Origin: a virus
Lineage: Duplodnaviria > Caudoviricetes
IMG/VR virus record: IMGVR_UViG_3300036940_000207
Location: 5,749 to 69,748 of that record
Strand: one strand, 5' to 3'
DNA: 64,000 nucleotides
Shown: piece by piece, positions 878 to 17,673 of the stretch
Numbering within the stretch: the stretch's first letter is position 1
Layout: each line of letters begins with the position of its first letter
Translations under genes and position numbers: made by a program
The notes under the pieces: generated by a model
The model's database searches: none
What the model saw: only the letters and a program-made list of their open reading frames with translations
Told to the model about the DNA's origin: nothing

Positions 878-906
878 TTGACAGTTGGTGGGCTATTGGG
901 TATTGT
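878..906 (+). promoter_or_regulatory. Sigma70-type early promoter
   Basis: TTGACA-N17-TATTGT. Confidence 0.6.
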
Positions 907-997
907 GTTCTTGTCTTGAGGGGAAAAGGGTCATTGAGTAAATTATTTAACAAGGATATGACAACTTAATAAGTTAAAAAGAATTTCAAATTTCTCA

Positions 998-1026
998 TTG
1001 ACAAGGGCAGAATCCTTTGATAGTCT
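998..1026 (+). promoter_or_regulatory. Early promoter (near-copy at 1645-1673)
   Basis: TTGACA-agggcagaatcctttga-TAGTCT. Confidence 0.7.
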
Positions 1027-1072
1027 GTTCTTGTTGGTCAGGAAAGGAAAACAAATCAAGGAGATTAGTTAC

Positions 1073-1495
1073 ATGATTAAACCTAACACAAGTTATGAGG
1101 GGCAAGGGGTCAAGGTCATGATTGAAGGTAAGGAATACCCTTTAATCAGGACCACAGCCAAGATGGCCTTCTATGATGTGGATGGTAAGGAAAAGAGGAT
1201 TTCACTTAAAAAAGTTAATACTCAGGATTCAGATAGTAACTCAAAGAAGGGTAAGAAAAGTAGGAAAAGTAATAAAGTAAGTGATTCTAATTCTGATCGT
1301 AAAGGACCAGTAGGTAATGGGAATTTTGGTGGGCACATGCCTAATGTTCCTGAATCCTGTACTCATAGTAGGGTGTTTGTAGATGATAAGGGTGTCAGGT
1401 GGATTGACAATCAAATTTGTAATTCTTTTTGTAAAGTAAAGAAGTGTGATCGGTGGCGTGAATACAGGAAGGAGACAGCAGGTAAAGTAAAGTAA
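1073..1495 (+). CDS. Hypothetical early protein, basic, Cys-containing C-terminus
   Basis: AAGGAG RBS then ATG 1073; the TTG start at 998 in the ORF track is the promoter -35 box; both Trp are TGG. Confidence 0.75.
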   Translation: MIKPNTSYEGQGVKVMIEGKEYPLIRTTAKMAFYDVDGKEKRISLKKVNTQDSDSNSKKGKKSRKSNKVSDSNSDRKGPVGNGNFGGHMPNVPESCTHSRVFVDDKGVRWIDNQICNSFCKVKKCDRWREYRKETAGKVK

Positions 1496-1507
1496 GGAGA
1501 TTAGTTT

Positions 1508-1630
1508 ATGTACATTCCAATGATTACTGAACTTATTAAGTCATTCTTTACTGAATCTGAATACTGGGAATTTATTCAAGAAAATAAATTAAATGATGAA
1601 GTTGATAATTTAACAAAAAATGATGATTAA
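1508..1630 (+). CDS. Small hypothetical early protein
   Basis: AAGGAG RBS, 40 aa. Confidence 0.5.
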   Translation: MYIPMITELIKSFFTESEYWEFIQENKLNDEVDNLTKNDD

Positions 1631-1644
1631 TCTTCAAATTTTTC

Positions 1645-1673
1645 TTGACAAGGGCAGGGTACTTTGATACTCT
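1645..1673 (+). promoter_or_regulatory. Early promoter
   Basis: TTGACA-agggcagggtactttga-TACTCT; leader similar to 998 copy. Confidence 0.7.
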
Positions 1674-1713
1674 GTTCTTGTCAGTCAGGGAAGGAGAACA
1701 AACAGGAGGTCAA

Positions 1714-1941
1714 ATGTCCAGGTCTTACAAGAAGGTTCCTATTGTTGGTAATATAGGATGCAAGTCTGAGAAAAAGGATAAATCAATTGCCAACCGTATG
1801 GAACGTAGGATAGTTAAGAACTATATCAACTCTGGATATGATGTTCTTCCTGATAAAAGGTCCATCTTTAATCTTTATGATATGAATAAGGATGGGAAGA
1901 ATTATAATCATAATGTTGAACCCAAAGAAATGAGGAAATAA
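1714..1941 (+). CDS. Hypothetical early protein
   Basis: AGGAGG RBS, MSRSYKKVP... Confidence 0.75.
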   Translation: MSRSYKKVPIVGNIGCKSEKKDKSIANRMERRIVKNYINSGYDVLPDKRSIFNLYDMNKDGKNYNHNVEPKEMRK

Positions 1942-2204
1942 ATTATGTTGACTCAAGTTACCATTTTTATCATTGACACAAATCCTTTTGAGTGGTATTC
2001 ATTGGGTCAGACATTCACCGCAATCAAGGTTATGGATAAAGATGTGAGAGTTAAATTAGAACAAATAAGACATCAAATTGATAAATTGCTGAATTAAGAA
2101 GAATTAACGTTTATTGGTACTGTGATTGGCTATTATAAGAATTATGCCACTTACGTGAGAGCAGTGAGAAGGGACTACACTTAAAACTTTAAGGAGAATT
2201 TGTT

Positions 2205-2561
2205 ATGAAGAATTACATTGTTGAACACATCAGGGATAAGAAGAGAAATCCTTATGCAACGTTAGTTGGTTATTATCACAATGGAAATGTTTTTATTGGT
2301 GATGCAAAATGTAACAAGAAATTTGATACATTCCAGAAGAGTAAGGGTGTAGAAATTGCTTTAAATAGAGCAATGAAATATATTAATATTTCGAATAATA
2401 GTATTATCTATTCTGACTGGAATGAACTGATTGATGATGAAGTAATTAAATTTGGTAAGAGATGTAAAAAATACTTTAAAACAAATCAAATTTTCTATAA
2501 TCCTAGATTTGAATTCATTGATTCTAGTGTAATTTTAATTTTTATTATTGAGACAGATTAA
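2205..2561 (+). CDS. Hypothetical phage protein
   Basis: AAGGAG RBS, 118 aa ORF. Confidence 0.7.
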   Translation: MKNYIVEHIRDKKRNPYATLVGYYHNGNVFIGDAKCNKKFDTFQKSKGVEIALNRAMKYINISNNSIIYSDWNELIDDEVIKFGKRCKKYFKTNQIFYNPRFEFIDSSVILIFIIETD

Positions 2562-3063
2562 TGAGTAATACTTGGTTTACGTCAGATTGGCATTTCTTCC
2601 ATGATAATATTCTTAAATATGAGAAGAATAATAGACCATTTAATAATATTAAAATGATGCATAACAAAATCATTGCTAACTATAACATGATGGTTAGCAA
2701 TGATTTTGTTATGTATTAGGTGATATTGCAATAGTTAATAACTCTAACTTAAATAAGTTAGATAAAATTATTAATTCTTTAAATGGTAGAAAAATTCTCA
2801 TATTGGGTAATCATGATGAAGGAATGCCATTTCGTTATTTGAAAATGGGATTTGAATCAGTTCATACATCTCTTGAATTGAATGAATGGAAACTTGTACA
2901 TGATCCTGCATGGGCAATAATGCAGAAGAATAAAACACACATTGTAGGACATGTGCATAGTTTATTTAAGATACAAGGAAATTGTATAAATGTGGGAATT
3001 GATGTTAGAAATTTGTTTCCAGTAAGTCTTGAAACATTATTAGAAGAAGAAAAGGGACTGTAA
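2561..3063 (+). pseudogene. Calcineurin-like metallophosphoesterase with a 1-nt frameshift near 2710
   Basis: DWHFFH, LGD, GNHD and GHVH motifs split over two frames. Confidence 0.75.
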
Positions 3064-3077
3064 TTACAGTCCCTTTT
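3050..3077. terminator. Bidirectional intrinsic terminator between converging early and late blocks
   Basis: Perfect palindrome aaaagggactgtaa/ttacagtccctttt. Confidence 0.85.
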
Positions 3078-3253
3078 TCAACTATTCAAAAAATTCTTCT
3101 CATTCAGTTTTTATTTTTAACTTATCAATATCTTCTTTAGTAATAACATCTTTATTCATTCTATCTATAATATTTTGAACCGCTGGAATACCATATTTCA
3201 AAGCTAAATCCATAACTTGTAGAATTAGATTTACTTCATGTTTATTCATTTTC

Positions 3254-3736
3254 TTACTCCTTATTAATTAACTCTGACAAACTAATAATTCTATCTATCA
3301 ATGTGTCTGGTACATGAACTCCTTCTATATACTTATCCATAATTATTTCTAGAGTTCTAGTTTCTTCTGCTAGTAAACTTACCAGATGTAATACTTTGTC
3401 TTTGTTATAAACTTTTCTACCTTCATTTAGAGCATCATACCATATTTCAACTTCTTTTTGAAGTTTATTATTATAAATTTTATGGTTTACTCATATAACA
3501 CCAATTTCATCTTTTTGATCCTCATTAATAAGATCTCTTTGTAACAAATCATTAGTTACATTACCAACAGTAGTACTTAATTCCTCAGAATAATCAAGTA
3601 ATGTATAAGCCAATACAAAATCTTTTGATAACTGTTCCCCTTTTTCAGTTGATACATCTTTTGGTAAACATCCAAAGGATGTAATCACAAAACTGATACA
3701 AAACATCATTATCATAACTTCTTTTAATTTCTTCAT
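3254..3736 (-). CDS. Predicted lipoprotein (spanin-like?), code 4
   Basis: Signal peptide ending ITSFG-C; one in-frame TGA extends it to TAA at 3254. Confidence 0.6.
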
Positions 3737-3745
3737 AATATCTCC

Positions 3746-4321
3746 TTATTTGTTTTTCTTTAATAAAAATTCTGGTAAAAATTTTGAATTAAAAAGTTGA
3801 ACCATTTTTAATTTAATTTTTGGTAATTTTGGTCTTCTTTGTGTAATTTCATTCCAGGTATGTAAAAAGTCCTCAATATCCTTCTCTTCAATAATGAACA
3901 ATGATATGTGTGGAATCATTCCACCTTCAAATACTTTAACATCACTTAATTCATTAACAACTAAATCATGGGCAGTTTTATATTGTTCATTTTTCTTCAT
4001 TTCTATAGTTATGAAATATTTACCTACATACTGACCATATAATAATTTTAATCTTTTAGGATTCATTATAAAATTTGAAGGTAATCGTTGCATTAATCTA
4101 ACCAATTTAGGTTTAGTATATGTACCAGTAATTTGTGCTACGGTTATATGAGGAGAATTATTCTGTTGATATGGAATATTAAAATGATCTAACCAACTCT
4201 TAATATATTCTATGGTTTGATTAATATCAGATACATTAACTTTGTATCCAATCATAGTTCTAGACATCTTCTTACCAGTAACCTTATTAGTTTTTTCTTG
4301 TATAAATTTATAAAATCTCAT
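3746..4321 (-). CDS. 2H phosphoesterase (T4 57B/Acb1 fold family)
   Basis: Two HxT/S motifs (PHITV, PHISL); N-terminus MRFYKFIQE. Confidence 0.7.
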   Translation of the reverse strand: MRFYKFIQEKTNKVTGKKMSRTMIGYKVNVSDINQTIEYIKSWLDHFNIPYQQNNSPHITVAQITGTYTKPKLVRLMQRLPSNFIMNPKRLKLLYGQYVGKYFITIEMKKNEQYKTAHDLVVNELSDVKVFEGGMIPHISLFIIEEKDIEDFLHTWNEITQRRPKLPKIKLKMVQLFNSKFLPEFLLKKNK

Positions 4322-4331
4322 AGTATTCTAC

Positions 4332-4988
4332 CTACTTAAATATTTGTTTGTTTTCATCTCATTTTGAATGAAGAATTTCTAACTTACTCATATTTACATA
4401 ATAATATTTATCACAATTAATTCACACCTCATAATTATTATAGTAAGCATCATCAAAACTTCTATCGGTCACAAAGTATTCTTCAAATGATAACTTTAAA
4501 TAATTAGGGTTTTCATCACTTATTAAATAATCACTTATTGCATCATAATCTCATCCTGTTCTCTTATCTTCTATATTAGCATCATCAGATCTAATAAATG
4601 TGTAAGATATATTCCCAATTGGGAATATATAGCATATAGAAGATCCAAATAAAATTAACTTATTTGGATCTTTAGCATTTTTACACATTACAGACTTATC
4701 TCTTCTATTATGGCCATTTTGTTCTAATCAAGTATTCAATGCATTAGCTTCAGAAGCAATCATTCCTTGGGGTTTTCTATTTTTTCTTACATTTTGAATA
4801 TCTATAAACTGATCACCTTTTGGAGTCATACCTCTAACTAAAGGAGATTTACCCTTAATCAATTTAAGATATGGTTTGCATCACTTCTTTACATTATCAT
4901 TAAATTCTTGTAAATCATTGTTTAAATCAATTATGTCTTTTCCAACTTTAACTTCTTCAACTTCATTTAAAAATTTATATAATCTCAT
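4332..4988 (-). CDS. ART-like paralog 1 (putative ADP-ribosyltransferase fold), code 4
   Basis: MRLYKFLNE start; VRG, RDKSVMC, IFPIG and YEVWINCDKY motifs; open if TGA=W. Confidence 0.55.
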
Positions 4989-4998
4989 AATTAAATTC

Positions 4999-5166
4999 CT
5001 ATAATAATATTATTACTCCCTTAACTAATAACAATATTACTCCTAACATTATAACAATGTTTATTAATACTTTAACAGCATTTCTTTTATCAATTTCATC
5101 TGTAACATTAGCAGTTTTAAATACTCCACCCATTCTTAGTAACCATTCCAATCCTTTATACAACAT
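4999..5166 (-). CDS. Small membrane protein, partial duplicate of the C-terminus of 5180-5791
   Basis: LRMGGVFK shared; 20-nt identical DNA stretch; hydrophobic C-terminus. Confidence 0.5.
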   Translation of the reverse strand: MLYKGLEWLLRMGGVFKTANVTDEIDKRNAVKVLINIVIMLGVILLLVKGVIILL

Positions 5167-5179
5167 AATACAATTCTCC

Positions 5180-5791
5180 TTATGCTGATTTTATACTTTT
5201 AATAAATTTAACTACTTCATTACTCTTGATACTTGTTAATACACCTTCTAAAGATGCAAATGAAATATTGGATAATGACATATGTTTAGCGACATGTAGG
5301 ATACTCTTACCAGTTGCTACTCCACCTAATATAGCAAATCCAAATATAATTGTATAAAATACAACCTCTGTTGCTTTCTCTTGTCTTCCTTTATCTGTGA
5401 TTCCAGCAGATTTAAATACTCCACCCATTCTTAATACTTGTCTAAGTGTAACAATATACGCATGATGTCATTTATCTGTCATTTTGATCAACTTTTCAAT
5501 AACACCTTCATCTTCCTTGGTATCTTTACCAAATAACTTCTTGATTTTATCAAGTACAAATTTGAAAGATTTAGCGATAGTTTTTATAATAGTGGGCATT
5601 CCTAGTATCAAAGAAATTATAAGTGTTACAGATACTGCCTCATCTACTCTCCCATTATACTCTACAAGATGTGATTCGTCAATAGGTTTATACATTTGTA
5701 AAGATTCCAGTGTCTTATCAAAACCCTCATTTAATGAAAGTTCTATTTCCTCATTTAAGTATGTGTTTAATTTGTTTAATAATTCAGTCAT
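5180..5791 (-). CDS. Hypothetical protein with hydrophobic segments, code 4
   Basis: Two track ORFs joined by one TGA; N-terminus contains YLNE. Confidence 0.65.
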
Positions 5792-5807
5792 TTAATTATC
5801 TCCTTAT

Positions 5808-7241
5808 TTATTTTATTAATTTTTTTGTAATATTTGACATAATTTCTTTCATTGTATCAGTATATCCCTTACCAAGAAAATTTAATCCACTTATATTTCA
5901 AATACCTGTGGCGTGTCCACCACTACCTTGTTCTATAATATCCCAGGTACTTATTTTAACTCTTTCTAATATATCCTTCTGCTTTCTGGTTAAATCTTTA
6001 AATCTTTTGTTAGTTATGTCTTTAACCATATCTGTTCATTTTTTCTTACCATCTACTTCAACCCCTTTAATCTGTTCGGGGGTGAATTGTGATATTAAAT
6101 CATCAAATGTAAATCCAACAGCACCTTCTAAATTTTTCTTAGTTATATCTTCTTCATATTTCTTCTTTAAATAGGCAAGACTCACCATATTATTTTCTCA
6201 TTGAGATTTATATTTGTTTAATACTTTATTTACCACTTCTTGAAAATTTACTGTTACATTCTTTTCCTTAAATGGATTAGCACTTACTTGAATCATTCCC
6301 ATTGGTCATCCCATTACTAAAAATTTAGCATCTGGATGATTTTTAAATACTACATATCTATCAAATTGAACACCTCTCTTTGGTGACATATTTCCACCAC
6401 CATATTGAATTACCACATTGCCTAATTCTCCAGATTGACCATTTTGTAAATTCTTAATATCTTTAGGTGACTTTAAATCAACAATATTTTCTTCTTGTTG
6501 TTTAACATATGTTTGTTGTTGTTGTTCAATTTCTTCAGGTGCTCTATACCCTTCTTGTTTTGCTAACCTTCTAGTAACATTATACAAAGATATAATAGAA
6601 GGGTTTGCTGTTTCTACTAATTTATTAAGAAAATCTGGTTTGTTCTTATATGAAAGTAATAACTTATTTGCTACAAGTCCCATTCTTCATTTGTTATCTT
6701 TTACTGAAATTGAACGATCCAGTCCAAAAGCTGCTCTCATTATATCATCTGGAGTTAAACCATGTTTATAAAAATCTGCTGAATCTACTGTTGAAATAAT
6801 TTCCAAATCTTGCATTGGAGAAATTAATCTTTTAGACATTTCAGCAGATATATGATAAGCATTAGCTGGTGCATCAATAAATGAGGTAGATGTTCCCGGT
6901 TTAATTCCACTTTGTCCTGAATGGTGATCTGTTCATACATTAACAAAGGGTTTGCCTTGACTAAAATCAACCATACAAACTAATGTATCTTTATCTCATG
7001 TTTTCTTTACATTATATGATATGTTCCCATATTGAACTACTTGAACATCTTTTAATTTCAAATTATATTCATTCTGTAAAATATATTTAAGTGAAATTGC
7101 CGAAAAAACACCATCTAAATCCATGTGGTATAAGATACTGAATTTATTGTGTTTTTTTATAAGGTTTTTCAATCCTTTTATATTTGCCTCATCTAATTTA
7201 TCATAGATGTCTAATTCTTGTAATCATAAATCTAGTTTCAT
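5808..7241 (-). CDS. DHH-family phosphoesterase (477 aa), code 4
   Basis: HMDLDG, MVDFS, WTDHH and SGGH motifs; N-terminus MKLDLWLQE. Confidence 0.8.
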
Positions 7242-7598
7242 TTATAAACCTCCCCCCATAGCAGCACTAGCAGTAGTTAAAAATGGTGTCATATCTATAC
7301 TTATGTTTGAAGGAATTTCTTTTTGTTTTGAAAGAAACTCTTTTATTTCTCTCTCTAAGTTGTTCTCACCTTTTTTAGTTGGTGGATATTCTTCAGTATG
7401 AAATATAGATTTATTCTTATACTTAATATCTACCCATATTTTCTTACTTTTCTCCTTTTCATTATCAATTACAGATTTACTAGGTATATTATTTTGTAAA
7501 ATTACGAAATTATATTTTCCCTTTTTAAAAGTATATAATATTTTTGATCATTTATATTGATCTTCTAATAAATATTTCTCCACTAAATCTAGTTTCAT
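7242..7598 (-). CDS. Hypothetical protein, code 4
   Basis: MKLDLVEKYLLE start; one TGA. Confidence 0.6.
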
Positions 7599-7882
7599 TA
7601 TGATTCTCCTATTTCTTCTTTAGCTTCTTGTTCACCATCTGTTCTGTTACTTTCATAATCTTTATCTAATTTCTTTAATAAATGTTCAAATTCACCTACA
7701 TGATGTTCTTCTTCATCACTTACATGTAAAAATATCTTTTTCACATCTGGATCTCTAGCTTTCTGTGCCATTTTTGAATATAAGTTAGAAGCATATCATT
7801 CTTCTTTAATAGCTTCTCTTAACATTTCAACATCTGTATATTCATCATAATTATTTTCATTTAAAAATTTTCTTAATCTCAT
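7598..7882 (-). CDS. Ferritin/rubrerythrin-like protein, code 4
   Basis: EAIKEEWYA...Y and EEEHHVGEF di-iron-type motifs; MRLRKFLNE start. Confidence 0.7.
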
Positions 7883-7891
7883 AATAATCCT

Positions 7892-8140
7892 TTATATTGA
7901 ATATTTACTTAATTGTTTCATAACACTCTTTGGTGTTTCATATGGCAAATCTAATGTAATAGTACCATCCTTCTCTTTCTTCTGTTTAACACCTTTCTTT
8001 TTCAAATCTTTCATTAACTTCTTAACATAACTATCCTTTGGGTTAATTCTAACCATTTTATTAGATATAGCACTATCAGCATCTAAGTTACCAACTGTAG
8101 ATGTGGTTATTTCTTCATTTATTCAGTCTCTAAATTTCAT
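7892..8140 (-). CDS. Small hypothetical protein, code 4
   Basis: MKFRDWINE start (W=TGA). Confidence 0.6.
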
Positions 8141-8141
8141 A

Positions 8142-8856
8142 TTATACCTCAAATAATCTATCAAATATTTCTTCATATACTAGATCAAATTCTTTATAAT
8201 GAATTCCATAATAAGATTTTGACATTAACATAATTTCATTATGTTTGGGTATATTTGGTATATCACTTGCGTCTGAAACTTTATACTTTCTTACCAAATC
8301 ATATATATATGATTTCATATCTTGTTCTGCTTCACCACTTAATAAATATTCTTTAAATACTTGATATGATTCAAACTGTTCTTGTTCGAAGTCATCCATT
8401 CCTAATCATACAGATCTTGTATCACCACCTTTTTTTAAGAAACCTGATATAAGATCAAAATTTATTACTTAAATGATCATATAAATCTCTAACTTTAGGT
8501 GATCACATTAATTTGTATTTTCCTATAGGAAATATTACATAAGTTGTACCGTATGCCATTGTTTTTATATAATTAATATAACAAAATAAAGATGAAGATC
8601 TAGGTCTAAATCCAAATTCATCATAAAATTCATTATCTATTATATCATGTGTTTCTTCAGGAGTATCTAATGGTATTCTGTCTTGTCTCACATCTCTTTT
8701 TATAATAGTTTTAGAACTATTTCTACCAGAATATAAAAGATTTGGTCATGATTTTCTTTGTTTCTTTAAATCATTAATAAATATAGAACAATCCTTTTTT
8801 AACTGTTCTATATCTTTACCTACAGATACTTCATTTAAATAATTGTATAATCTCAT
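8142..8856 (-). pseudogene. ART-like paralog 2 with a 1-nt frameshift at about 8430-8460
   Basis: MRLYNYLNE; YSGR, RPRSSSLFC, YG..YVIFPIG; terminal NEIML motif lies in the downstream frame. Confidence 0.55.
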
Positions 8857-8857
8857 A

Positions 8858-9487
8858 TTAACCAATTCCTAATTTCTGCTTAAATTCACTTCAATAATCG
8901 GGATGAACCAATATATATTTATCACAATTAAATATTGCTTCAAATGAAGGGTTTGCTGTTCTAGTTAAATATTTTGGTAATTCTTTGGAACTATATTTTT
9001 TTCTATACATATCTACTATATGTTTTCTGATAATTTCCAAATTCTCAGATTTTTCTTGTTCTGAATAAAGATCACTATTTTTAGTTATTCCATAATCATC
9101 ATATAAAGAATAAACTGCACGTTTTGTAGGTCCATATGCTCATACATACTGATAATTACCCATAGGTATGAATATAAATCTTTTACCAAAACTTAGAGCT
9201 GTTCTTTCATCTCCAGTAAAGGCGCCTTCAGATCTTATATTTCATCCTCATAATTCTTTTGATACCTTACCTAAATATTCATGTAATTCTTCAGGAATAA
9301 ACCTTGGTTTTCTATTTTTATGAACATTCTTAACAGTATAATGTGTAGTGCTTACTTTATTATGTCCTCTTCATATTAATTGGTCCGTTTCTTGTTCTAG
9401 AACAGACCTAAATTCTTTAAGAAATGGCTCAATAGCAGATTTAATCTTATCATCAACTTTTTCATTTAAATAATTATATAATCTCAT
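8858..9487 (-). CDS. ART-like paralog 3, code 4
   Basis: MRLYNYLNE; WRG, RSEGAFTG, FIPMG and FEAIFNCDKY motifs. Confidence 0.55.
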
Positions 9488-9488
9488 A

Positions 9489-10052
9489 TTATTCTAACTC
9501 TCTTAATTTTTGTTTAATCACTGATATAATGTTTTTTTGTGTAGTGGTTAAATTTCTCTTCGATTCAAGATTGGATAAAATTTCTTTAGTAGATCTTACA
9601 GTTTTATCTCTAAAAGAAGAAGATGCTTGTTTAAGGTCTGAAACATTATCTAGTCTATCAGCTAACTTAATAACTAATGCCCAATCACTCATATTAATCA
9701 TTTTGTCCGATAAATATTTAGATTTGCCTACCTTTTTTATTTCTTCAGGATCACTAGTTAATTCTTTAACTATGGAAGCAACCAATCCACCAAATAATTT
9801 ATTTAAATCTTTAAATGTAGTATTTGTATCTTCGATAGTATCATGAAGTAATGAAGCAGATATTAATTGATCTAATTTATGGGATTGTTTGAACTTTTTA
9901 ACTATTGCAGCTACTCTTTTTGGATGTTCAAAATATGGTTCATTTGAAAATTTTCTTCTTTGTCCTTTATGTTTAATAGAACCAAATTTTTCAGCAAAAT
10001 CTTCAATTGTTGCTGCATCTTCTAATATAGAAATATAACTCTTTAATCTCAT
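9489..10052 (-). CDS. HD-domain (p)ppGpp hydrolase-like protein (SpoT/MESH1 type)
   Basis: H.GQRRK...PYFEHP, LLHDTIEDT, IKLADRLDN. Confidence 0.85.
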   Translation of the reverse strand: MRLKSYISILEDAATIEDFAEKFGSIKHKGQRRKFSNEPYFEHPKRVAAIVKKFKQSHKLDQLISASLLHDTIEDTNTTFKDLNKLFGGLVASIVKELTSDPEEIKKVGKSKYLSDKMINMSDWALVIKLADRLDNVSDLKQASSSFRDKTVRSTKEILSNLESKRNLTTTQKNIISVIKQKLRELE

Positions 10053-10054
10053 AT

Positions 10055-10759
10055 CTAGTAAACTTCCTTTTTATCTACCAATGTCAATTTGCCACTCTTA
10101 GGATCTATTAATAAACCAAAGAATTCCATCACTGGTTCATTTTCTGGTATGTTATACTCTTGTCTCACATCTTCTATTATATCATTAGAAATCTTATTTG
10201 TCATATTTAAGAACTGTTTCACATTCTTATCATGATCATCTATCATTCTAACTCTTCTATATTGTTCATGTTTTAAATAGTTCAGTATAACTCTTTCTTT
10301 TCTTTCAGGTATTGTACCTGATTTTAAATTTCCTACTCTTTCAATATATACAGTTGGTCTAAAATCAACATCAATACCATATTCTCTAAATGTTTGTAAA
10401 AATTCTTGTTTATTATCAAAGTCAGCTCTAGCAGTTAAGAAAATGATTTTACTTCCTCTTTTATTCTTCTTTAACATAGAAATCATTCTTTTTAATCTTT
10501 CAATAGTAGGCATAATTGGTTTAGATGTTTTTCTAAACAATTCAGCATCTCTAAATTCTTTAAAATCAAATTCTTCATTATCTTTAAGTTGATAAAAGTT
10601 AAATTCTTGGTTATCTAGTTTTCTAATTACTTCACCTGTCTCTTTATCAATCACATGAATCTTAGCAAATGTGGAAAATACAGTTTCATCAATATCTACA
10701 AATGTAATACCTTTACCATATTCACTTTTTCTCTCATTCAAATATGTATACAATCTCAT
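10055..10759 (-). CDS. HAD-superfamily phosphatase
   Basis: VDIDET, FLTAR and MIDDHDKN motifs; MRLYTYLNE start. Confidence 0.75.
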   Translation of the reverse strand: MRLYTYLNERKSEYGKGITFVDIDETVFSTFAKIHVIDKETGEVIRKLDNQEFNFYQLKDNEEFDFKEFRDAELFRKTSKPIMPTIERLKRMISMLKKNKRGSKIIFLTARADFDNKQEFLQTFREYGIDVDFRPTVYIERVGNLKSGTIPERKERVILNYLKHEQYRRVRMIDDHDKNVKQFLNMTNKISNDIIEDVRQEYNIPENEPVMEFFGLLIDPKSGKLTLVDKKEVY

Positions 10760-10787
10760 ATTTATACTCCTATAACATTTACATTAT

Positions 10788-10799
10788 TATTTATAAATA
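10788..10799. promoter_or_regulatory. Overlapping divergent T4-type late promoters
   Basis: Palindrome TATTTATAAATA gives TATAAATA on both strands, between divergent genes at 10759 and 10831. Confidence 0.75.
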
Positions 10800-10830
10800 C
10801 TATTGAAGAAATTATAAATGGAGAATTATA

Positions 10831-11288
10831 ATGAGATTATACAATTATCTAAGTGAAAATGAGTTAAATGAATCTATCAAATCAACATTTACCTCCATAG
10901 TTAAAGATCTTACCAAAAAATCTGAAGATCAAATGAAATCAATATTGAAGAAAATTGGGATAAATTAGTATCTTATATTAAGAAGAATAATTTAGAGGAT
11001 GAGTTTCAGAAAATATCTAGAAGGGCTTTTGGTAAGAAGATAAACATTAATGAAATGAATGAAGTGACTGCTGAACCTGAAAAGAAGGGATTCAAGAACT
11101 GATTAAAAAGCTTATTGTTTCAAGGTAGAATTGGTGCTGGAATATTTACATCATTACAAATATTCTTTGAGTTAGATGTATTAATAGAAGGTGATATACC
11201 AGATCCTAAAAGACTTCTTATATATGCATTCTTATGGTTAGCATTATCTTCATGAATATATAAGGATTGAAAGAAGGGAGAAGCCTAA
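10831..11288 (+). pseudogene. Hypothetical protein with a 1-nt frameshift near 10952
   Basis: MRLYNYLSE start; frame resumes after an A-run and continues through TGA codons to TAA 11288. Confidence 0.5.
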
Positions 11289-11403
11289 GTGGTAACTAAT
11301 CCCTAAATAAGACCAATTTTGTACCTAAAGTGGTAAATGGTCATAAAAATTTCCGGGGTTTGGGGTAAACCATCCCTAAATTTTACTATAAGGAGAACTA
11401 AAT

Positions 11404-11811
11404 ATGAGATTATATGAAAAATATTTGGAAGAAGAAGATATTGAAATTGATGAATATTTATCTGATCTTGAGGAAGCTGTATTTGACTTAATCGACTCTT
11501 TAGATGAAGATCAACTTAACGAAGATCAACAAGATATAATTGATGATATTCTTGAATTGACAGAAGATGAAAGTGATGATATAGATGATGAATTGGATGA
11601 AGCAAGGACAGAAAGAGTTGTTAGAGGTGGTAAGAAAGTAAGGAAGTTGAAGAGAAAACCTGGGTATAAAGTGAAGAACGGGCGGTATGTTAAAATCAGC
11701 TCTTCAGAAAAACGAAAACGATCCAGGGGTGCCAAGAAGGGTGCAAGAAAAAGAAAATCACAAAAATCAAGTATTGAGAGAAAACGTAAGCGTTCAATGA
11801 AAAAAAGATAA
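11404..11811 (+). CDS. Prohead core-like protein (acidic N-half, K/R-rich C-half; T4 gp68-like)
   Basis: Charge-bipartite 135 aa; RVVRGGK...RKRSRGAKKGARKRK; MRLYEKYLEE start. Confidence 0.55.
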   Translation: MRLYEKYLEEEDIEIDEYLSDLEEAVFDLIDSLDEDQLNEDQQDIIDDILELTEDESDDIDDELDEARTERVVRGGKKVRKLKRKPGYKVKNGRYVKISSSEKRKRSRGAKKGARKRKSQKSSIERKRKRSMKKR

Positions 11812-11822
11812 AAATATTTGTA

Positions 11823-11913
11823 AGAGGGACAGAGGGTAGCTCCCTTTGATTGAATACCCTTACTATTCAATCTAACCTCTATATTACTTTATTCAGTAAG
11901 GGAGAATAAAATG
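11823..11913 (+). promoter_or_regulatory. Structured RNA leader A of endonuclease gene
   Basis: Three-way junction; loop ACCCTTACT complementary to SD region AGTAAGGG. Confidence 0.7.
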
Positions 11914-12999
11914 GCAAAGAGATTAACATATGATCATGTAAAACATTCTATTGAAAAAGAGGGTTATGAATTATTAAGTGATGGGTACAAAAATGACAAC
12001 ACAAAATTAAAAATTCAATGTTCTGAAGGTCATATATTTGAAATGAGGTATAGAGCTTTTTATATGGGGCAAAGATGTCCAACTTGTGCAAGAATAAAAA
12101 GAGGAATGTTAAAAAGAAACACATTTCAATGTGTTAAAAGATTTATAGAAAATGAAGGATATAAACTTATTTCTAAAGAATATAAAAACGCACACACTAA
12201 GTTACAGATCAAATGTCCAGAAGAACATAGATTTGAAATGAAATTTAACGCTTTCCAACAAGGTCAAAGATGTCCTGAATGTGCCATTAAAAGAAATAAT
12301 GATCTAAAAAGATTTGATTATAAAGACGTAAAAAATTATATCGAATCCTTTGAAGGATATAAATTGCTGAGTGAAGAATATATAGGTTCTAATACAAAAC
12401 TAAAAATTCAATGTTCTGAAGGTCATATATTTAAAATGACCTTCGCTTGTTTTAAAAACCGTGGTCAAAGATGTCCTAAATGTTTTGGTAATAAGAGATT
12501 AACTAACCAAGAGATTATTGATTCACTAATCTTTTGTGAAAATATTAGAGAAAATAAAAATGAAGAAGTAGAAGTTACATGTGCATACTGTGGTGAATGG
12601 TTCATTCCTAAAAGATCAAATCTAACATATAGAATTCTATATGTTAATGGTGAAAAAAATAAAGAATCTAGATTGTATTGTTCACAACAATGTAAAGATA
12701 ATTGTCCCACGTATAATCAAAAATTATATCCCAAAGATTTTAAACCAGCAACATCAAGAGAAGTTCAACCTCAGTTAAGGCAAATGGTTTTTGAACGTGA
12801 TAATTATACATGTCAGCGATGTAACACTCATAAAGATGAATTAGAATGTGGTATACATTGTCACCATATATTACCATTAAATGAAGATCCGATACAATCA
12901 GCAGATGTAGATACATGTATAACCTATTGTGAGAATTGTCATAAGTGGATACATCAGAATGTTGCTGGTTGCGGATATGGTGAAATGAGGTGTGTATAA
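11911..12999 (+). CDS. HNH endonuclease with repeated Zn-finger units (putative homing endonuclease)
   Basis: Three GY.L.S..Y...TKL.I.C.E.H.F...GQRCP.C repeats; C-terminal CQRC...HCHHI...CENCH. Confidence 0.8.
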   Translation: MAKRLTYDHVKHSIEKEGYELLSDGYKNDNTKLKIQCSEGHIFEMRYRAFYMGQRCPTCARIKRGMLKRNTFQCVKRFIENEGYKLISKEYKNAHTKLQIKCPEEHRFEMKFNAFQQGQRCPECAIKRNNDLKRFDYKDVKNYIESFEGYKLLSEEYIGSNTKLKIQCSEGHIFKMTFACFKNRGQRCPKCFGNKRLTNQEIIDSLIFCENIRENKNEEVEVTCAYCGEWFIPKRSNLTYRILYVNGEKNKESRLYCSQQCKDNCPTYNQKLYPKDFKPATSREVQPQLRQMVFERDNYTCQRCNTHKDELECGIHCHHILPLNEDPIQSADVDTCITYCENCHKWIHQNVAGCGYGEMRCV

Positions 13000-13026
13000 T
13001 AAATAAGAAATGAGAAGGAGATCTTA

Positions 13027-13389
13027 ATGAGATTAAATAATTACTTAAATGAACGGAAAGGAAAGGCGTTGCCCTAATCACAAAGAAGAAAGATAAATAA
13101 AGAAGTTCAAAAATTACTCCAACCGACCTATTTCAAACAAATTCCATTACAAGATTTGTTTGATATATTAGATAAGTATGGCATTGTTCCGGTACAAGAA
13201 GATAACACATACTGGTCAGGTATGCTAGCTGGTGGAGTTAAAGATACTGTTCAGACATATTTTGAACTTGCCTGGAAAGATAGTAAAGAAGGTAAAACAT
13301 ATACAGAACCAGTAAATAATGCTATGTTAGCATTATCCTATTATAAAATGCCTTCTGGTAAATATGAGGTCATTGGATATATAACATAA
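13027..13389 (+). pseudogene. Hypothetical protein with in-frame TAA at 13075
   Basis: MRLNNYLNE start with AAGGAG RBS; the frame stays open after the TAA. Confidence 0.5.
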
Positions 13390-13399
13390 GGAGGATAAG

Positions 13400-13588
13400 A
13401 TGAATATATTAGAAAAATTAAATACTTATATTCAAGAATTTGATTCTTTAATTGAAAATGAAGATAAATATGAGAAAATATTTAAGAAAAAGTTAAAGGA
13501 ATGAGGTGTTGATAAGGCAAGTGAATTATCAAATAAGGATAAGAAGAAATTTTTTGATGAAATTGAGAAGGAATGAAAAGGGAAATAG
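13400..13588 (+). CDS. Small head-associated hypothetical protein, code 4
   Basis: KKKLKEWGV...KKKFFDEIEKEWKG; both W are TGA. Confidence 0.65.
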
Positions 13589-13590
13589 TT

Positions 13591-14324
13591 ATGAGATTAT
13601 ATGATTATCTAAATGAATCAAGAACTAAATCAATTCCTGAATTTAAAGCTCTTGATACTATAGTAACTGAATGTAAAGATATTGCTAGTAGATTTTTAGA
13701 TGATATATATATATCATGAGAGGAAGTAGAACAACTGAAGATTTTCTACATTTAAAACCTGGAAATGAATTAAGAAAATCTGCTCACACATCTAATTATT
13801 ATACACTTTTCATTAATAATCATCCATTATGAAAAGATTATCCTAAGAGACAAATAATATGTTCAGGTGGAAGTGGTGAAAGAGCAATGGCACATTTATC
13901 AAGAACTGTATATTATGTATTTCCAATAGATAGATCTAAAATAGGCATTTGTCCAGATGATGATATTTGATCATCCTTTGATGATCAAATATTAAGATAT
14001 TTTGAAATTAGAGATGTCTCTAATTTAGATCAATTTAACCAAATGTTGGATTATTATGGTTTTAGTGATGATAATTGACAAACATTTAAAAAACAATTGC
14101 AAACTGAAGAAATTGATGTGAAGAATAATAAAAATATGAATGCTATGAAATTATTAGAAGAAGTACTTAATCCTAATAAAAATGGATTTAAAGTTGAAAC
14201 TACTAATAATTTAAGTTTAAATTCATTAGATAATCAAGAAGTATGATTAGATAGTGAATGTATATTAGTTAGTTATAGTCAAAAAGAAAAATTAGAAAAT
14301 TTATTTAGAGATGAAGGATTATAA
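13591..14324 (+). pseudogene. ART-like paralog 4 with a frameshift at or next to an (AT)6 tract near 13710
   Basis: MRLYDYLNE; RG, YYVFP and NQEVWLDSE motifs. Confidence 0.5.
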
Positions 14325-14336
14325 GGAGAAATTATC

Positions 14337-14579
14337 ATGCCAGCAAATTTAGTTAAATCAGTTCAAAATAAATGTAACATGTCTAAAGAAGAAGCTGAAA
14401 AGAAATGAAAAGAAGCTAAACAAAAAGCTTCAGATCAAGGTCATAGTGAAGAATGAGATTATGTTGTTGAAATTTTTAAACATTTAGTAGGCAAGAAATG
14501 TGCTAACAAAATGGGATGAGATTTAAGTAAGAAAACTAATGAAGGAATACAATATATTATAGATAAATATCTGAATTAA
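14337..14579 (+). CDS. Small hypothetical protein, code 4
   Basis: AAGGAG RBS; three TGA read as W. Confidence 0.6.
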
Positions 14580-14594
14580 TTAAGGAATAATTTC

Positions 14595-15053
14595 ATGTCT
14601 TACATGCATAGTAAGGAAAATAAGGATACTACCAGATATTATCCTAAAAATAAAGAGAAATGTGATAAACAATATTATATCACACGTTCTTCATGAGAGT
14701 ATAAACTATTACAATGATGTGATATCAATTCTAATGTTTTGAAATGATCATCTGAACCAATAGGCATCCCTTATCAACATCCTATAAAAATGAGGGATGC
14801 CAGATACTATCCAGATGTATTGATTAAATGTAAAACTAAAAGTGGTAATGTTAAAGTATATCTCATAGAAGTAAAACCTTACAAAGAATGTAAACCACCT
14901 ATCAAATCAAAGGGCAAATCGAAGAAGACTATGCTTTATGAAGCTAAAACATGAGAAGTTAATAAAGCAAAATGAAAAGCTGCTCAAAGATATTGTAAAT
15001 TGAAGGGTTGAACATTTAAAATTATTACTGAGAAAGAACTATTTGGAAAATAA
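14595..15053 (+). CDS. gp4: Head completion nuclease (T4 gp4-like), code 4
   Basis: RSSWE, QWCD, WSSE, YYPD, IEVKP, NKAKW, GWTF; all six Trp are TGA. Confidence 0.9.
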
Positions 15054-15059
15054 ATTGAT

Positions 15060-15254
15060 TTAATTCTTCCTTATTGAAATTAAACAATTTTTATGACCAA
15101 AATGATCAGAACATTTATATCTTGTATATCTATCAGGTTTATATTCTCTTTCCTCTATTTGATGATAAATTTCATCACAATACTTTCCACAAATTTCACA
15201 TTTTCCAAAATATTCTGATGAATATTTTTTCCTAATCAATTTATATCTATACAT
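15060..15254 (-). CDS. Small Cys-containing hypothetical protein
   Basis: CEICGKYC motif, RBS present. Confidence 0.55.
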   Translation of the reverse strand: MYRYKLIRKKYSSEYFGKCEICGKYCDEIYHQIEEREYKPDRYTRYKCSDHFGHKNCLISIRKN

Positions 15255-15266
15255 AATATCCTCTTT

Positions 15267-15608
15267 CTATATTAACTTATAATCTTTACATATAGAATCT
15301 ATAATTTTATCCTGATCAGGTCCAACACCAATACATGTATAAGTTTTGTTACTAAATTCAGTTAATCCCAAATCTTGTACTAAAAAATTTGGAATATTGT
15401 TTTGATTACATAAATCTTTGATTTTAAATAATTCTTGTTCATCTCTACATCCAACAACAATCTTCTTATAGTTATCTTCTAACCATTTAGTAATTTTATC
15501 TGAACCGAAATGATTATATAATATCATAGTAGATGCGTGAGCAACTTGAGCCGCAACTTTACCCTTCCTCATATTTAAATCAGTTCTAACTATAATTACT
15601 TGTTTCAT
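15267..15608 (-). CDS. pth2: Peptidyl-tRNA hydrolase, Pth2 family
   Basis: KQVIIVRTDLNMRKGKVAAQVAHAS, QDLGLTE, CIGVGP; TGA-free. Confidence 0.92.
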   Translation of the reverse strand: MKQVIIVRTDLNMRKGKVAAQVAHASTMILYNHFGSDKITKWLEDNYKKIVVGCRDEQELFKIKDLCNQNNIPNFLVQDLGLTEFSNKTYTCIGVGPDQDKIIDSICKDYKLI

Positions 15609-15786
15609 TATACCCCTCATTTAATTTATCTATTTCTTCTTTTAATTCAGCAAATAAACAATAATTATCACATATAGGTTCATCATACTTAGTTGTTTCT
15701 TCAACACAATTATTATATATGAAATTAGCAGCAACTCTCATTAAATAAACAAATCTTGGTTCATTCTTTCCTCGTACAACTTCCAT
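15586..15786 (-). CDS. Hypothetical early protein
   Basis: ATG 15786 just after the trpS stop. Confidence 0.55.
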   Translation of the reverse strand: MEVVRGKNEPRFVYLMRVAANFIYNNCVEETTKYDEPICDNYCLFAELKEEIDKLNEGYNETSNYS

Positions 15787-15787
15787 A

Positions 15788-16756
15788 TTATATCCCCATA
15801 CTATGTTTGATACCATCCATTATATTTTCTTTAATATATTTCCTAATATTATTTCTTGAAAAATTGATACATTCTAACTCTAATTCATGTTCTTGTCCTT
15901 CTAGTTCTTTATATCGTTCTCTTGCTTCTCCTATATCTCTATTAACTAAATCAAATGTTCTTTCCTTTACATACTTCCAACTTAATCCATTATTCATATC
16001 TACCTTTAAATCAAATACTTCTTGATTTATACTAAATAATTCAAATAATTGAGTAATTGGAGATTCATTAAATTCTTTGGGAACTCCATCACCTTTATCA
16101 TTTGTTTTAATTGAGAATATATGTTTTCTCAATTTTTTCTCAGTACAGAATAATGGAATAATATTGTTATAACTCTTACTCATTTTCCTACCATCATAGC
16201 CTGGAATACTATGATGAGAAATTATTGGTTCAGGTACAGATAATAGATTAGATTTACGTTCATAATTAAATTTATTAACTATATCATTTGCCATTTCTAT
16301 ATGTTGAACCTGATCTGGACCTATTGTTACATACTTAGTATTGAATGAAACCAAATCTGCTGTCATTAATACAGGATATGTATATAATAATGTATTAACT
16401 CCTTTATCACTATCTTTACCCTTATGTTCATTATCATCTTTGATTGCTCTATATGCATGTGCTCTATTAAGTAATCCCTTAGATGTATATGCAGATAATA
16501 TAACATCTAATACCATAATTTCAGGAATTTGTGATTGAATCACAATATTATGAATATTAAAAGATTTTAGTATTCTAATAATTTCTTGTCTGTTTTTTAC
16601 AAGAATTTTTTTATCTTGGACAGAGGTAAGAGCGTGAAGATCTGCTATCAAAAATATAGTTTCATCTTTAAAAGGTAATATTGGTTTAATAGTAGATATA
16701 TAATTACCAAGATGTAATACACCTGTTGGTTTTATACCTGTAAGATATTTAAACAT
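15788..16756 (-). CDS. trpS: Tryptophanyl-tRNA synthetase, bacterial type
   Basis: TGIKPTGVLHLGNY (HIGH), YPVLMTAD, GPDQVQHIE, KMSKS; TGA-free. Confidence 0.95.
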   Translation of the reverse strand: MFKYLTGIKPTGVLHLGNYISTIKPILPFKDETIFLIADLHALTSVQDKKILVKNRQEIIRILKSFNIHNIVIQSQIPEIMVLDVILSAYTSKGLLNRAHAYRAIKDDNEHKGKDSDKGVNTLLYTYPVLMTADLVSFNTKYVTIGPDQVQHIEMANDIVNKFNYERKSNLLSVPEPIISHHSIPGYDGRKMSKSYNNIIPLFCTEKKLRKHIFSIKTNDKGDGVPKEFNESPITQLFELFSINQEVFDLKVDMNNGLSWKYVKERTFDLVNRDIGEARERYKELEGQEHELELECINFSRNNIRKYIKENIMDGIKHSMGI

Positions 16757-16967
16757 CTATCATCTCCATCGTTAATCGTAAAACTTGTGATAATTCTTTA
16801 CTAATTTTATCAAAAAATTCTAATTCATCAATGGCATCTTCTAATAACTGAAATTTTAGTTCACGTTTGGCTCCTTGAAGACTGTATCCTAAATTTTCAT
16901 GAAGGTCAACGATATCTTTAGGAGATATAGGTATTAAATTTCCATCTTCATCAAATATATTATTCAT
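16749..16967 (-). CDS. Hypothetical early protein
   Basis: 72 aa ORF in operon. Confidence 0.55.
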   Translation of the reverse strand: MNNIFDEDGNLIPISPKDIVDLHENLGYSLQGAKRELKFQLLEDAIDELEFFDKISKELSQVLRLTMEMIDV

Positions 16968-16970
16968 AAT

Positions 16971-17180
16971 TTAAATTCCTATTCTTGTAAATTTAAAATT
17001 TGGATCTCTTAGTGGACAATTTTTGGGAAAATTATTCGTAATCAATCACTCATTTATTACATTAAATACAGATTCATCTAAACTACACATGAACCTTTCT
17101 TCATATTGTAATAGAAAAGGACAAGATAGACAACCCTTAATTATTACTTCATTCCTTTCTTTATCATAATTATATCTCAT
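16971..17180 (-). CDS. Small Cys-rich protein with one in-frame TGA
   Basis: GCLSCPF...NE(TGA)LITNNFPKNCPL. Confidence 0.55.
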
Positions 17181-17183
17181 ATT

Positions 17184-17399
17184 TTACTCCTGTTTAGGTG
17201 GAAATTTAGAAAATGCCCTTTCTAAATGTTTAATAGGATTAGTAGGTTCACATTCATGTATATGTTCATAAATTTTATATCTTAAAACTGTATAATGTAC
17301 CCACTTACTTATTAAATTAAGTTGTTCATATGATTCACAAGAATCTATTGTTCTGATCAACTTTACATTTGCTATCCACCATTTAGGAAATAAATTCAT
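17184..17399 (-). CDS. Hypothetical early protein
   Basis: AAGGAG RBS; three Trp, all TGG. Confidence 0.6.
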   Translation of the reverse strand: MNLFPKWWIANVKLIRTIDSCESYEQLNLISKWVHYTVLRYKIYEHIHECEPTNPIKHLERAFSKFPPKQE

Positions 17400-17422
17400 A
17401 ATTCTCTCCTTTGTTTAAACCA

Positions 17423-17451
17423 ACTATAGTATAAATTTTTATAGTTGTCAA
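17423..17451 (-). promoter_or_regulatory. Early promoter of the trpS/pth2 operon
   Basis: TTGACA-N17-TATAGT. Confidence 0.75.
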
Positions 17452-17467
17452 TATGCAATGTAGTATT

Positions 17468-17621: not shown

Positions 17622-17673
17622 GTAAAAATTATATAAATATAGTAGTAAAGATAATTACAATTTGAATTTTTTT

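Follow-up and report, generated by a model that had tools for sequence, protein, structure and literature searches.

Why should some twenty genes of one phage, encoding proteins of several different families, begin with nearly the same short peptide? The question is raised by a 64,000-nucleotide stretch of viral DNA (the window in what follows), which spans bases 5749-69748 of a 69,748-base viral contig, IMG/VR record IMGVR_UViG_3300036940_000207. The peptide, which we call the tag, has a nine-residue form that reads roughly MRLxxYLNE and a longer form with the same ending. We believe both are likely to be this clade's version of the capsid-targeting sequence (CTS) of phage T4, that is, a propeptide that loads proteins into the head. 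Capsid targeting had been proposed for the tag in the first-pass annotation of this DNA. In silico the proposal is supported by a gp21-type protease, by a layout like that of the CTS, by a tag on a homolog of the T4 internal protein IPI, by the virion proteome of Agrobacterium phage Atu_ph07, and by late-promoter motifs.

The common form, class 1, is M-[RK]-[LF]-x-x-[YFW]-[LI]-x-E, mostly with N before the final E. It stands at 16 gene starts in the window: on the minus strand at 4321, 4988, 7241, 7598 (longer), 7882, 8140, 8856, 9487, 10052 (longer) and 10759, and on the plus strand at 10831, 11404, 13027, 13591, 36102 and 39838. Some of these tags have two or three added residues (MRLKSYISILE, MKLDLVEKYLLE), and the contig has one further class 1 gene, 4.5 kb upstream of the window. 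Class 2 is longer, ..L[LN][EN]KLN.Y[LI].E (..LEKLNxYLNE), and is found at four starts, 5791 on the minus strand and 13400, 27825 and 28067 on the plus strand. Its sequences are MTELLNKLNTYLNE, MNILEKLNTYIQE, MQDKTLLEKLNLFLGE and MQNKLLEKIDKYLEG, and they end in the same way as class 1. Over the 20 gene starts the tag is 9-13 residues long. All the tagged starts listed in the first-pass annotation are in place when TGA is read as tryptophan. Its description of them as about 20 unrelated proteins has to be trimmed: several different families are indeed represented, but five or six of the proteins are paralogs of a single ADP-ribosyltransferase-like (ART-like) family.

The tags are concentrated far beyond chance. 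Of the 14 consecutive minus-strand genes between 10759 and 3082, 12 have a tag. The core [YFW][LI][NQSLEH]E occurs within the first 14 residues of 13 of the 95 called proteins, against about 0.26 expected from its internal frequency (5 internal matches in about 18,600 residues), an enrichment of about 50-fold. Across 10 contigs the search pattern gave 48 matches, at least two of which are chance or an internal methionine; about 46 are genuine distinct tags, with the consensus M-[RK]-[LF]-x-x-[YFW]-[LI]-N-E. The pattern imposed L/I/V/M at position 7 and Glu at position 9 and is no test of either. Among the columns it left free, position 6 is aromatic in 45 of the 48 and position 8 is Asn in 32 of the 48; positions 4 and 5 and all residues after the Glu are unconstrained.

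A separate observation concerns the capsid protein. The class 2 tags (LLEKLNLFLGE, LLEKIDKYLEG, LLNKLNTYLNE, ILEKLNTYIQE) are similar to its N-terminus, which is ILEKWKELLE in the window and LLNKWKPLLE in T4 gp23 (sites compared: window 29253-29300, 27825-27875, 28067-28115, 5747-5791 and 13400-13440), and class 1 resembles the last eight residues of class 2. Judging from these similarities, the tag may work by copying the contact that the capsid protein itself makes with the scaffold or core.

The contig is about 29% complete by CheckV, so the genome is probably around 240 kb. Its G+C content is about 27%, and its reading frames stay open only with TGA as tryptophan (code 4). The tags confirm this internally: TGA at 7224-7226 and at 8123-8125 codes the aromatic slot of MKLDLWLQE (7241) and MKFRDWINE (8140). 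A tRNA scan gave no tRNA genes in the window, so the suppressor tRNA for TGA should lie outside it. The head genes are those of a T4-type phage:

Portal: Portal_T4, E 1e-92 (Pfam).
27190-27813, plus strand: prohead protease, T4 gp21 homolog (Peptidase_S77, E 8.5e-28; phrog_207, 3.5e-48).
27825-28052 and 28067-28369, plus strand: two small genes between protease and scaffold, with the class 2-like starts MQDKTLLEKLNLFLGE and MQNKLLEKIDKYLEG.
Scaffold: T4_CASP, E 3.5e-18.

The two protease matches bear out the gp21 homolog that had been called at 27190. Between the capsid protein and cyanophage gp23 identity is about 35%; the source is a distant, uncultured T4-type phage. Alignment with T4 gp23 puts a probable maturation site of the window capsid protein near ..YNMNE|AISDPG; N-E would then most likely stand at P2-P1 once more, the alignment being a gapped one. 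The two small genes matched no family in Pfam or PHROG. They are placed like T4 gp67 and gp68 beside gp21, and we regard their products as candidate prohead core proteins. The portal start (window 25315-25360) is MVWYNPRDWLNES, which contains the tag core W-L-N-E (..DWLNE).

The T4 CTS system is reportedly to be traced to Mullaney and Black (1996). In T4, the proteins IPI, IPII, IPIII and Alt carry a CTS that is removed by the gp21 prohead protease (PMC9026906, PMC3012670, PMC5694885). In the T4 record the sequence reads MKTYQEFIAE in IPII and IPIII and MKTFKEFTSTTTPVSTITE.. in IPI, and the internal proteins have propeptides of 10-19 residues (PMC9026906). In the CTS of IPIII, targeting works mainly through residues 4 and 7 and processing through residues 8 and 10, and Asp at position 10 stops cleavage and leaves targeting (PMC9026906). 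Counted from the cleavage site, the T4 ending F-I-A-E (F7-I8-A9-E10) corresponds to [YFW]-[LI]-N-E here, which gives the same layout of an aromatic residue at P4, I/L at P3 and Glu at P1. Both are peptides of about ten residues at the extreme N-terminus that start with Met and a basic residue, have their aromatic four from the end and close with [I/L]-x-Glu.

A direct link to T4 comes from a relative. A search with the protease led to a 24-kb contig of GCA_003566095.1 (L061), also code 4, whose protease is 51% identical and whose neighbourhood is similar, with TrpRS and TnsA-like genes. Directly behind that protease lies a gene for an 85-residue homolog of T4 IPI (IPI_T4, PF11634, E 9.5e-12, above the curated cut-off), and it starts MRLHNYLNE. 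In a BLASTP alignment of this homolog with T4 IPI (51% identity, E 1e-14), NYLNE|KITAEDVIKLNKGREGKP aligns with STITE|ATLTSEVIKANKGREGKP. The tag's Glu9 is thus matched to Glu19 of T4 IPI, with which that protein's 19-residue propeptide ends. T4 IPI is experimentally established as a protein that is packaged, processed by gp21 and injected (PMC3012670, PMC9026906). The next gene of the relative is likewise tagged, and three more around its head module have class 2 tags. A search of the window's own contig for the IPI_T4 family gave no match, and the control genomes were without signal too. Two other features of the relative may be recorded here: its portal has ..YNRLNEA, and just upstream of the portal lie genes for a papain-like Peptidase_C1 protein (L061:3097-3969) and for a CAP-domain protein with a signal-like N-terminus (6512-7129).

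Does the tag predict what is in the virion, as the first-pass annotation claimed? This can be asked of Atu_ph07. When 50,697 phage records were searched by tblastn with the ART-like protein, only two jumbo phages were hit, Atu_ph07 and Salicola phage SCTP-2. SCTP-2 has an annotated T4 gp4 homologue; its ART-like homolog (gene 445) is without a tag, and the neighbouring gene 444 starts MRLTNLIE. Atu_ph07, like the window, has T4 core genes (its authors report 16; PMC6102473), among them a gp21 homolog, gp204. It also has an array, gp054-gp063, of ART-like homologs of about 32% identity, each starting with a sister tag, M[RK]WxQLxE or MRLFQLLE. Unlike the window's, this tag has eight residues and Trp at position 3, and the host is a standard-code alphaproteobacterium. 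The virion proteome comprises 131 of 714 proteins (PMC6102473, Table S5). We scanned the whole genome for M[KR][WLFIYM]xx[LIFM]xE at the starts of open reading frames (ORFs) and mapped the matches to the annotation, leaving out an internal Met of ribonucleotide reductase and one unannotated ORF. The annotated tagged genes number 20: gp043, gp053-063, gp381, gp407, gp408, gp482, gp487, gp548, gp561 and gp672. All 20 are in Table S5, most of them with 3-31 unique peptides (hypergeometric P about 5e-16), and seven lie outside the three large virion gene clusters of the authors. In this relative, therefore, the claim is borne out. A search of the main text of PMC6102473 for the words 'N-terminal', 'N-terminus', 'motif' and 'cleav' came up empty, so the shared N-terminus seems not to have been described there. 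The unannotated ORF (NC_042013, 315250-315526, minus strand) has 92 codons and starts MRLFDLFE; it may be the gene of a missed virion protein.

The alternative that survives best is that the tag is an address to the virion and nothing else, an uncleaved anchor to some other part such as the tail, the whiskers or the outer capsid surface, with cargo that is not injected. The Atu_ph07 proteome speaks of virion association only, and the virions of that phage bear hair-like fibres (PMC7824862). We nevertheless consider this alternative unlikely. The tag ends in a gp21-type consensus, and on the IPI homolog it replaces the T4 propeptide with its Glu aligned to the propeptide end. The longer tag is found on small genes between protease and scaffold, and a tagged protein with acidic and basic halves matches a head-scaffold PHROG. 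Soluble enzymes such as the HD, HAD and 2H proteins are unlikely external structural parts.

A different idea is that the peptide is a leader for another phage enzyme, for example a modifier of many substrates, or a signal for degradation or localisation inside the cell, and that presence in the virion is secondary. Shared leaders are typical of such modification systems. However, the 69.7-kb contig (about 29% of the genome) has no radical-SAM gene in a search whose controls all responded, all 20 tagged Atu_ph07 proteins are in virions, and the tag has the layout of the T4 CTS and sits on an IPI homolog. We find this idea very improbable.

If the tagged proteins are head cargo, their genes should be read with the head genes, and the window has features that bear on this:

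10788-10799: two T4-type late-promoter motifs, divergent, with TATAAATA on each strand; they head both tag arrays.
3050-3077, minus strand: terminator-like hairpin closing the minus-strand array.

The divergent region 10760-10830 has one TATAAATA per strand, 29-32 nt before the first gene of each array. Of the 25 such motifs in the window, 12 lie 20-58 nt upstream of a gene start on the same strand, where 1.25 would be expected at random, and the well-placed ones include those before gp21, gp22 and gp23. The pattern fits late co-expression of the tag arrays with the head genes. A scan of 1-18000 for sigma-70 promoters gave 122 sites against 131 expected and is uninformative in DNA this rich in AT.

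What the tag is attached to can be seen gene by gene. The minus-strand array runs as follows, from its first gene:

10055-10759, minus strand: HAD-type phosphatase, polynucleotide-kinase-phosphatase-like; MRLYTYLNE; first gene of the array (Acid_phosphat_B, 7.9e-7; phrog_415 'polynucleotide kinase', 1.3e-8). Its DxDxT motif begins 12 residues past the tag.
9489-10052, minus strand: HD-domain phosphohydrolase of the RelA/SpoT-type HD_4; MRLKSYISILE (HD_4, 2.2e-14; HD, 1.4e-7; phrog_990, 1.4e-29).
8858-9487, minus strand: ART-like paralog; MRLYNYLNE (phrog_11975; family alignment A1); the tag is 8/9 identical in the ortholog on L012.
8142-8856, minus strand: ART-like paralog; MRLYNYLNE; frame broken, with an intact 233-residue ortholog at L011:568-1269.
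7892-8140, minus strand: 82-residue protein of no known family (no Pfam or PHROG match); MKFRDWINE, 9/9 identical in the L011 ortholog.
7598-7882, minus strand: 94-residue ferritin-like protein, rubrerythrin-type (encapsulated-ferritin-like); MRLRKFLNE (Rubrerythrin, 2.1e-10; EncFtn-like, 3.3e-6).
7242-7598, minus strand: 118-residue protein with the longer tag MKLDLVEKYLLE; no family match in Pfam or PHROG searches.
5808-7241, minus strand: 477-residue DHH-type phosphoesterase; MKLDLWLQE (phrog_4771 'DHH phosphoesterase', 6e-4; a weak Pfam DHH match, 0.0021, under the cut-off). Its translation shows the motifs ..TDHH.. and ..GSGGH..; compared with L011 the tag is conserved at 8/9 and the remainder is 48% identical.
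5180-5791, minus strand: 203-residue protein, hydrophobic in its C-terminal half; class 2 tag MTELLNKLNTYLNE; the L011 ortholog starts MSRLLNKLDTYINE.
4332-4988, minus strand: ART-like paralog; MRLYKFLNE, 9/9 identical in L011 (phrog_11975, 6.1e-15).
3746-4321, minus strand: 2H phosphoesterase (LigT / 2'-5' RNA ligase-type); MRFYKFIQE and a linker. It has two HxT/S motifs, HITV and HISL; LigT_PEase is weak (E 0.086, under the cut-off), the protein atlas score to 2'-5' RNA ligase clusters is 0.93, and the ten best matches are all of one clan.

The plus-strand array and the tagged genes outside the arrays are these:

10831-10968, plus strand: 45-residue protein; MRLYNYLSE; first gene of the array.
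11404-11811, plus strand: 135-residue protein; MRLYEKYLEE (phrog_3503 'head scaffolding protein', 8.3e-8). Its N-terminal half is acidic and its C-terminal half very basic, and from this sequence it looks like an internal or core protein of the head.
13027-13389, plus strand: interrupted tagged gene; MRLNNYLNE; homolog of the second tagged gene behind the L061 protease.
13400-13588, plus strand: 62-residue protein; class 2 tag MNILEKLNTYIQE.
13591-14324, plus strand: broken tagged gene; MRLYDYLNE (phrog_12810, 4.3e-29, for the downstream part); probably of the same ART-like superfamily.
36102-36665, plus strand: ART-like paralog outside the arrays; MRLINYLNE (phrog_11975, 1.2e-37).
39838-40062, plus strand: 74-residue protein; MNFKMYIQE, a weaker tag; a TATAAATA motif of its own lies 21 nt upstream.

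Some untagged genes lie among these. The 55-residue gene 4999-5166 and the C-terminal half of the 203-residue protein (5180-5791) have LRMGGVFK[ST]A in common, followed by a hydrophobic stretch, as though by partial duplication. Gene 3254-3736, close to where the minus-strand array ends, has a lipoprotein-like signal, a hydrophobic stretch closing with Cys at residue 23. A zinc-ribbon / CapR-repeat endonuclease-like gene (11911-12999) lies within the plus-strand array and a TnsA-like endonuclease gene (14595-15053) just past it; the array may owe some of its turnover to mobile endonucleases.

The families under the tag are HD_4, HAD, DHH, Rubrerythrin and ART-like in the window, and PolyA_pol/CCA enzyme, cREC_REC, Zeta_toxin/AAA_33, NT5C and IPI_T4 in relatives. 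Several of the latter come from two IMG/VR contigs with arrays of 8-9 tagged genes (L004:5057-10803 and L008:431-8207), which are probably standard-code fragments. Among the proteins tagged there are an HD-domain enzyme of the CCA-adding / poly(A) polymerase type, a cREC_REC protein, a Zeta/AAA_33 kinase and an NT5C 5'-nucleotidase, a combination that looks like a kit for repairing RNA. Peptidase_S77 and the capsid protein were not found on five IMG/VR records with tag arrays, those of L008, L010, L001, L009 and L003, from which nothing follows, these being 11-36% fragments searched with no positive control.

Where in the DNA or protein does the signal lie? An alignment of the 60 nt upstream of all tagged starts has no conservation beyond a GGAG-type ribosome-binding site. 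The aromatic slot is encoded by TAT, TTT or TGA, and the substitutions within the tag are conservative (R/K, L/F, Y/F/W, L/I). The codons of the Atu_ph07 tag vary synonymously (AGA/CGT/AAA/AAG, CAA/CAG, TTA/CTT/CTA/TTG). With the upstream DNA unconserved and the tagged proteins belonging to different families, the signal is one that acts at the level of protein. An origin in the nucleotides, as a shared promoter, ribosome-binding site or recombination cassette, was considered and rejected, only the GGAG being conserved upstream.

The tag is also a separable, portable module under its own selection, gained or lost between orthologs and borne by unrelated folds. Between the window and its syntenic code-4 relative (the contigs L011 and L012 of the gene lists above), the tag is identical at 8-9 of 9 positions in five of six tagged ortholog pairs; the sixth pair agrees at 6/9 over the first nine residues of a longer class 2 leader. 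The remainder of these proteins is 48-90% identical. The gene 4332-4988 differs from its L011 counterpart by a 7-residue indel directly behind the conserved tag, and the L011 ortholog of the 2H protein (3746-4321) is without the 15 residues of tag and linker. It is this conservation of the tags apart from the remainder, together with the indel and the absence in one ortholog, that leads us to speak of a module. To the notion that we are looking at a nucleotide or translation-initiation feature (an AT-rich 5' coding region, or a cassette like the T4-type promoter-early stem-loops) or at the inherited N-terminus of one family we give hardly any credence, for although the tags are nearly identical in DNA in a 27% G+C genome and five or six of the tagged proteins are paralogous, the upstream DNA is unconserved, synonymous codons are free to vary in Atu_ph07, the swaps Y/F/W, L/I and R/K preserve chemistry, and the tag is found on at least nine Pfam families and is present or absent among orthologs.

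The largest family under the tag deserves separate treatment. The window holds five or six ART-like paralogs, at 4332, 8142, 8858, 36102 and probably 13591. In their alignment (A1) an Arg is invariant and a Glu nearly so (at least 90%), in the contexts ..RG.., ..R[SD]x[SG].. and ..E[IV]..; a Ser-x-Ser-like motif between them is less strict, its first Ser being Asp in two paralogs. The yardstick was the R-S-E type of ART fold (T4 Alt/ModA/ModB-like), with its conserved Arg, Ser-x-Ser and catalytic Glu. An AlphaFold2 model of 36102-36665 has a mean predicted local distance difference test (pLDDT) score of 89, and about 50 over the first ten (tag) residues; the tag forms a detached N-terminal helix of low confidence. 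A wide search of the model with VIA-align returned mostly ART folds in the top 30 (Arr, exotoxin A, diphtheria toxin, cholix, DarT, PARPs), with Z only 3-6 (up to 6.0). Foldseek against the PDB gave no match with E below 0.001, and the paralogs have no Pfam ART match. On this modelling we call the family ART-like and do not regard it as proven.

Several points weigh against reading the tag as a capsid-targeting propeptide and should be taken together. The late-promoter motif is not enriched overall in this AT-rich DNA (25 against 25.8 expected), so only its position relative to gene starts is informative. The portal begins with ..DWLNE, yet the T4 portal escapes cleavage; the motif alone is thus no proof of processing. 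What Atu_ph07 has is a sister form of the tag, shorter by one residue and carrying Trp at position 3. The virions of that phage were purified with polyethylene glycol and gave no N-terminal peptides, and the evidence they provide is of virion association only, not of the head interior or of cleavage. As many as 13 of the 20 tagged Atu_ph07 proteins come from one family, which weakens their independence, and for this reason we also counted by family: stripped of the tag, the 20 proteins form 8 BLAST-independent families, with P about 1.3e-6. Three tagged genes in the window are broken: 13027-13389 by an in-frame TAA at 13075-13077 (codon 17), its start at 13027 being the head of the interrupted gene, 13591-14324 by a frameshift in a (TA)n run near 13700-13716, and 8142-8856 by a frameshift in an A-run near 8430-8440. 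Their intact orthologs are present in L011 and L061, and the breaks could be gene decay, population variants or assembly errors. Lastly, for the window phage itself we infer packaging, binding to the core, cleavage after the Glu and injection from sequence and relatives only.

With these points in view, we still think a head-loading propeptide is the likely explanation, and it would work as follows. The tagged genes would be transcribed late. During prohead assembly the tag would bind their products to the scaffolding core, and the gp21-type protease (27190-27813) would then cut behind the final Glu (P3 = L/I, P1 = E). Once freed, the proteins would stay beside the DNA inside the head and accompany it into the host cell. 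The predicted cargo comprises the ART-like paralogs, phosphoesterases of the HD, HAD, DHH and 2H types, a small ferritin-like protein and the acidic/basic core-like protein. For the tagged ART-like paralogs there is a direct precedent in T4 Alt, an ADP-ribosyltransferase that the phage packages. The phosphoesterases, taken with the CCA-adding enzyme, kinase and cREC protein of the relatives, might resemble a kit for the repair of RNA ends. To go by their predicted families, they could equally remove cyclic-nucleotide or alarmone signals.

How does this compare with what is already known? As with the T4 CTS, otherwise unrelated proteins carry the tag, the head module encodes a gp21-type protease, expression would be late (here read from promoter motifs), and in one relative, L061, the tag is on a true IPI homolog. 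The cargo, like that of T4 with its Alt, includes ART-like proteins. There are differences as well. The tag is MRLxxYLNE, not MKTYQEFIAE, and there is a second, longer class of it. The genome is put at about 240 kb, and 70 kb of it contain about 20 tagged genes, whereas T4 has about 4-6. T4's cargo is small basic proteins; here it is mostly predicted enzymes (HD, HAD, DHH, 2H), and that of the relatives, again unlike T4's, includes a CCA-adding enzyme, a kinase and a 5'-nucleotidase. The T4 system has been worked out at the bench, and this one is known from sequence.

The hypervariable internal-protein (ip) loci of the T-even phages, where diverse genes have only the CTS in common (PMC3012670, PMC9026906), provide a second comparison. 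Like them, the arrays described here consist of fast-changing, dispensable-looking genes that keep only an N-terminal tag. Some copies are broken, and orthologs differ by gain or loss of the tag and by indels directly behind it. Unlike them, these arrays are longer (12/14 consecutive genes tagged) and belong to a very distant code-4 T4-type lineage. In the phiKZ-like giants (SPN3US, phiKZ, 201phi2-1), propeptides of ejection or inner-body proteins are cut at A/S-x-E by a protease related to gp21 (PMC5694885, PMC7411985). There too many head-internal proteins are processed after Glu, and the N-termini of some paralogs are identical. However, those propeptides are mostly 80-130 residues long, with no single short tag that is shared and portable, and the cleavage motif has a small residue at P3 where the tag has Leu/Ile. 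That the CTS lets T4-like phages load varied proteins is an idea already in print (PMC9026906). Our literature search found no publication describing this tag, its expansion or the Atu_ph07 correlation. New here are the test against the Atu_ph07 proteome and the tagged IPI homolog.

Should the tag prove to be a head-loading address, a genome alone would tell which proteins its phage injects, something now known for only a few model phages. In Atu_ph07, which is cultured, amenable to genetics and already covered by a proteome, the tag rule is open to a direct test. A tag this short and portable could have a practical use besides, since foreign proteins might be packaged into phage heads with it; the T4 CTS already serves this purpose. 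We would go further only tentatively, and with somewhat more doubt than belief. On a clade-wide reading, one portable address of 8-9 residues would preload the capsids of large T4-type phages, from a code-4 marine-type phage to the cultured 490-kb Atu_ph07, with a large and fast-changing kit of active enzymes. Injected with the DNA, the kit would act before phage gene expression as a pre-emptive payload for counter-defence and RNA repair. It would contain ADP-ribosyltransferases and phosphoesterases of RNA ends and nucleotides; relatives would add a CCA-adding enzyme, a kinase like polynucleotide kinase and a nuclease inhibitor of the IPI type. The set as predicted is large, with enzymes making up most of it, which suggests that ready-made activities are delivered at the moment of infection. 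These may include ADP-ribosylation of the host, repair of RNA ends and the removal of nucleotide signals or alarmones.

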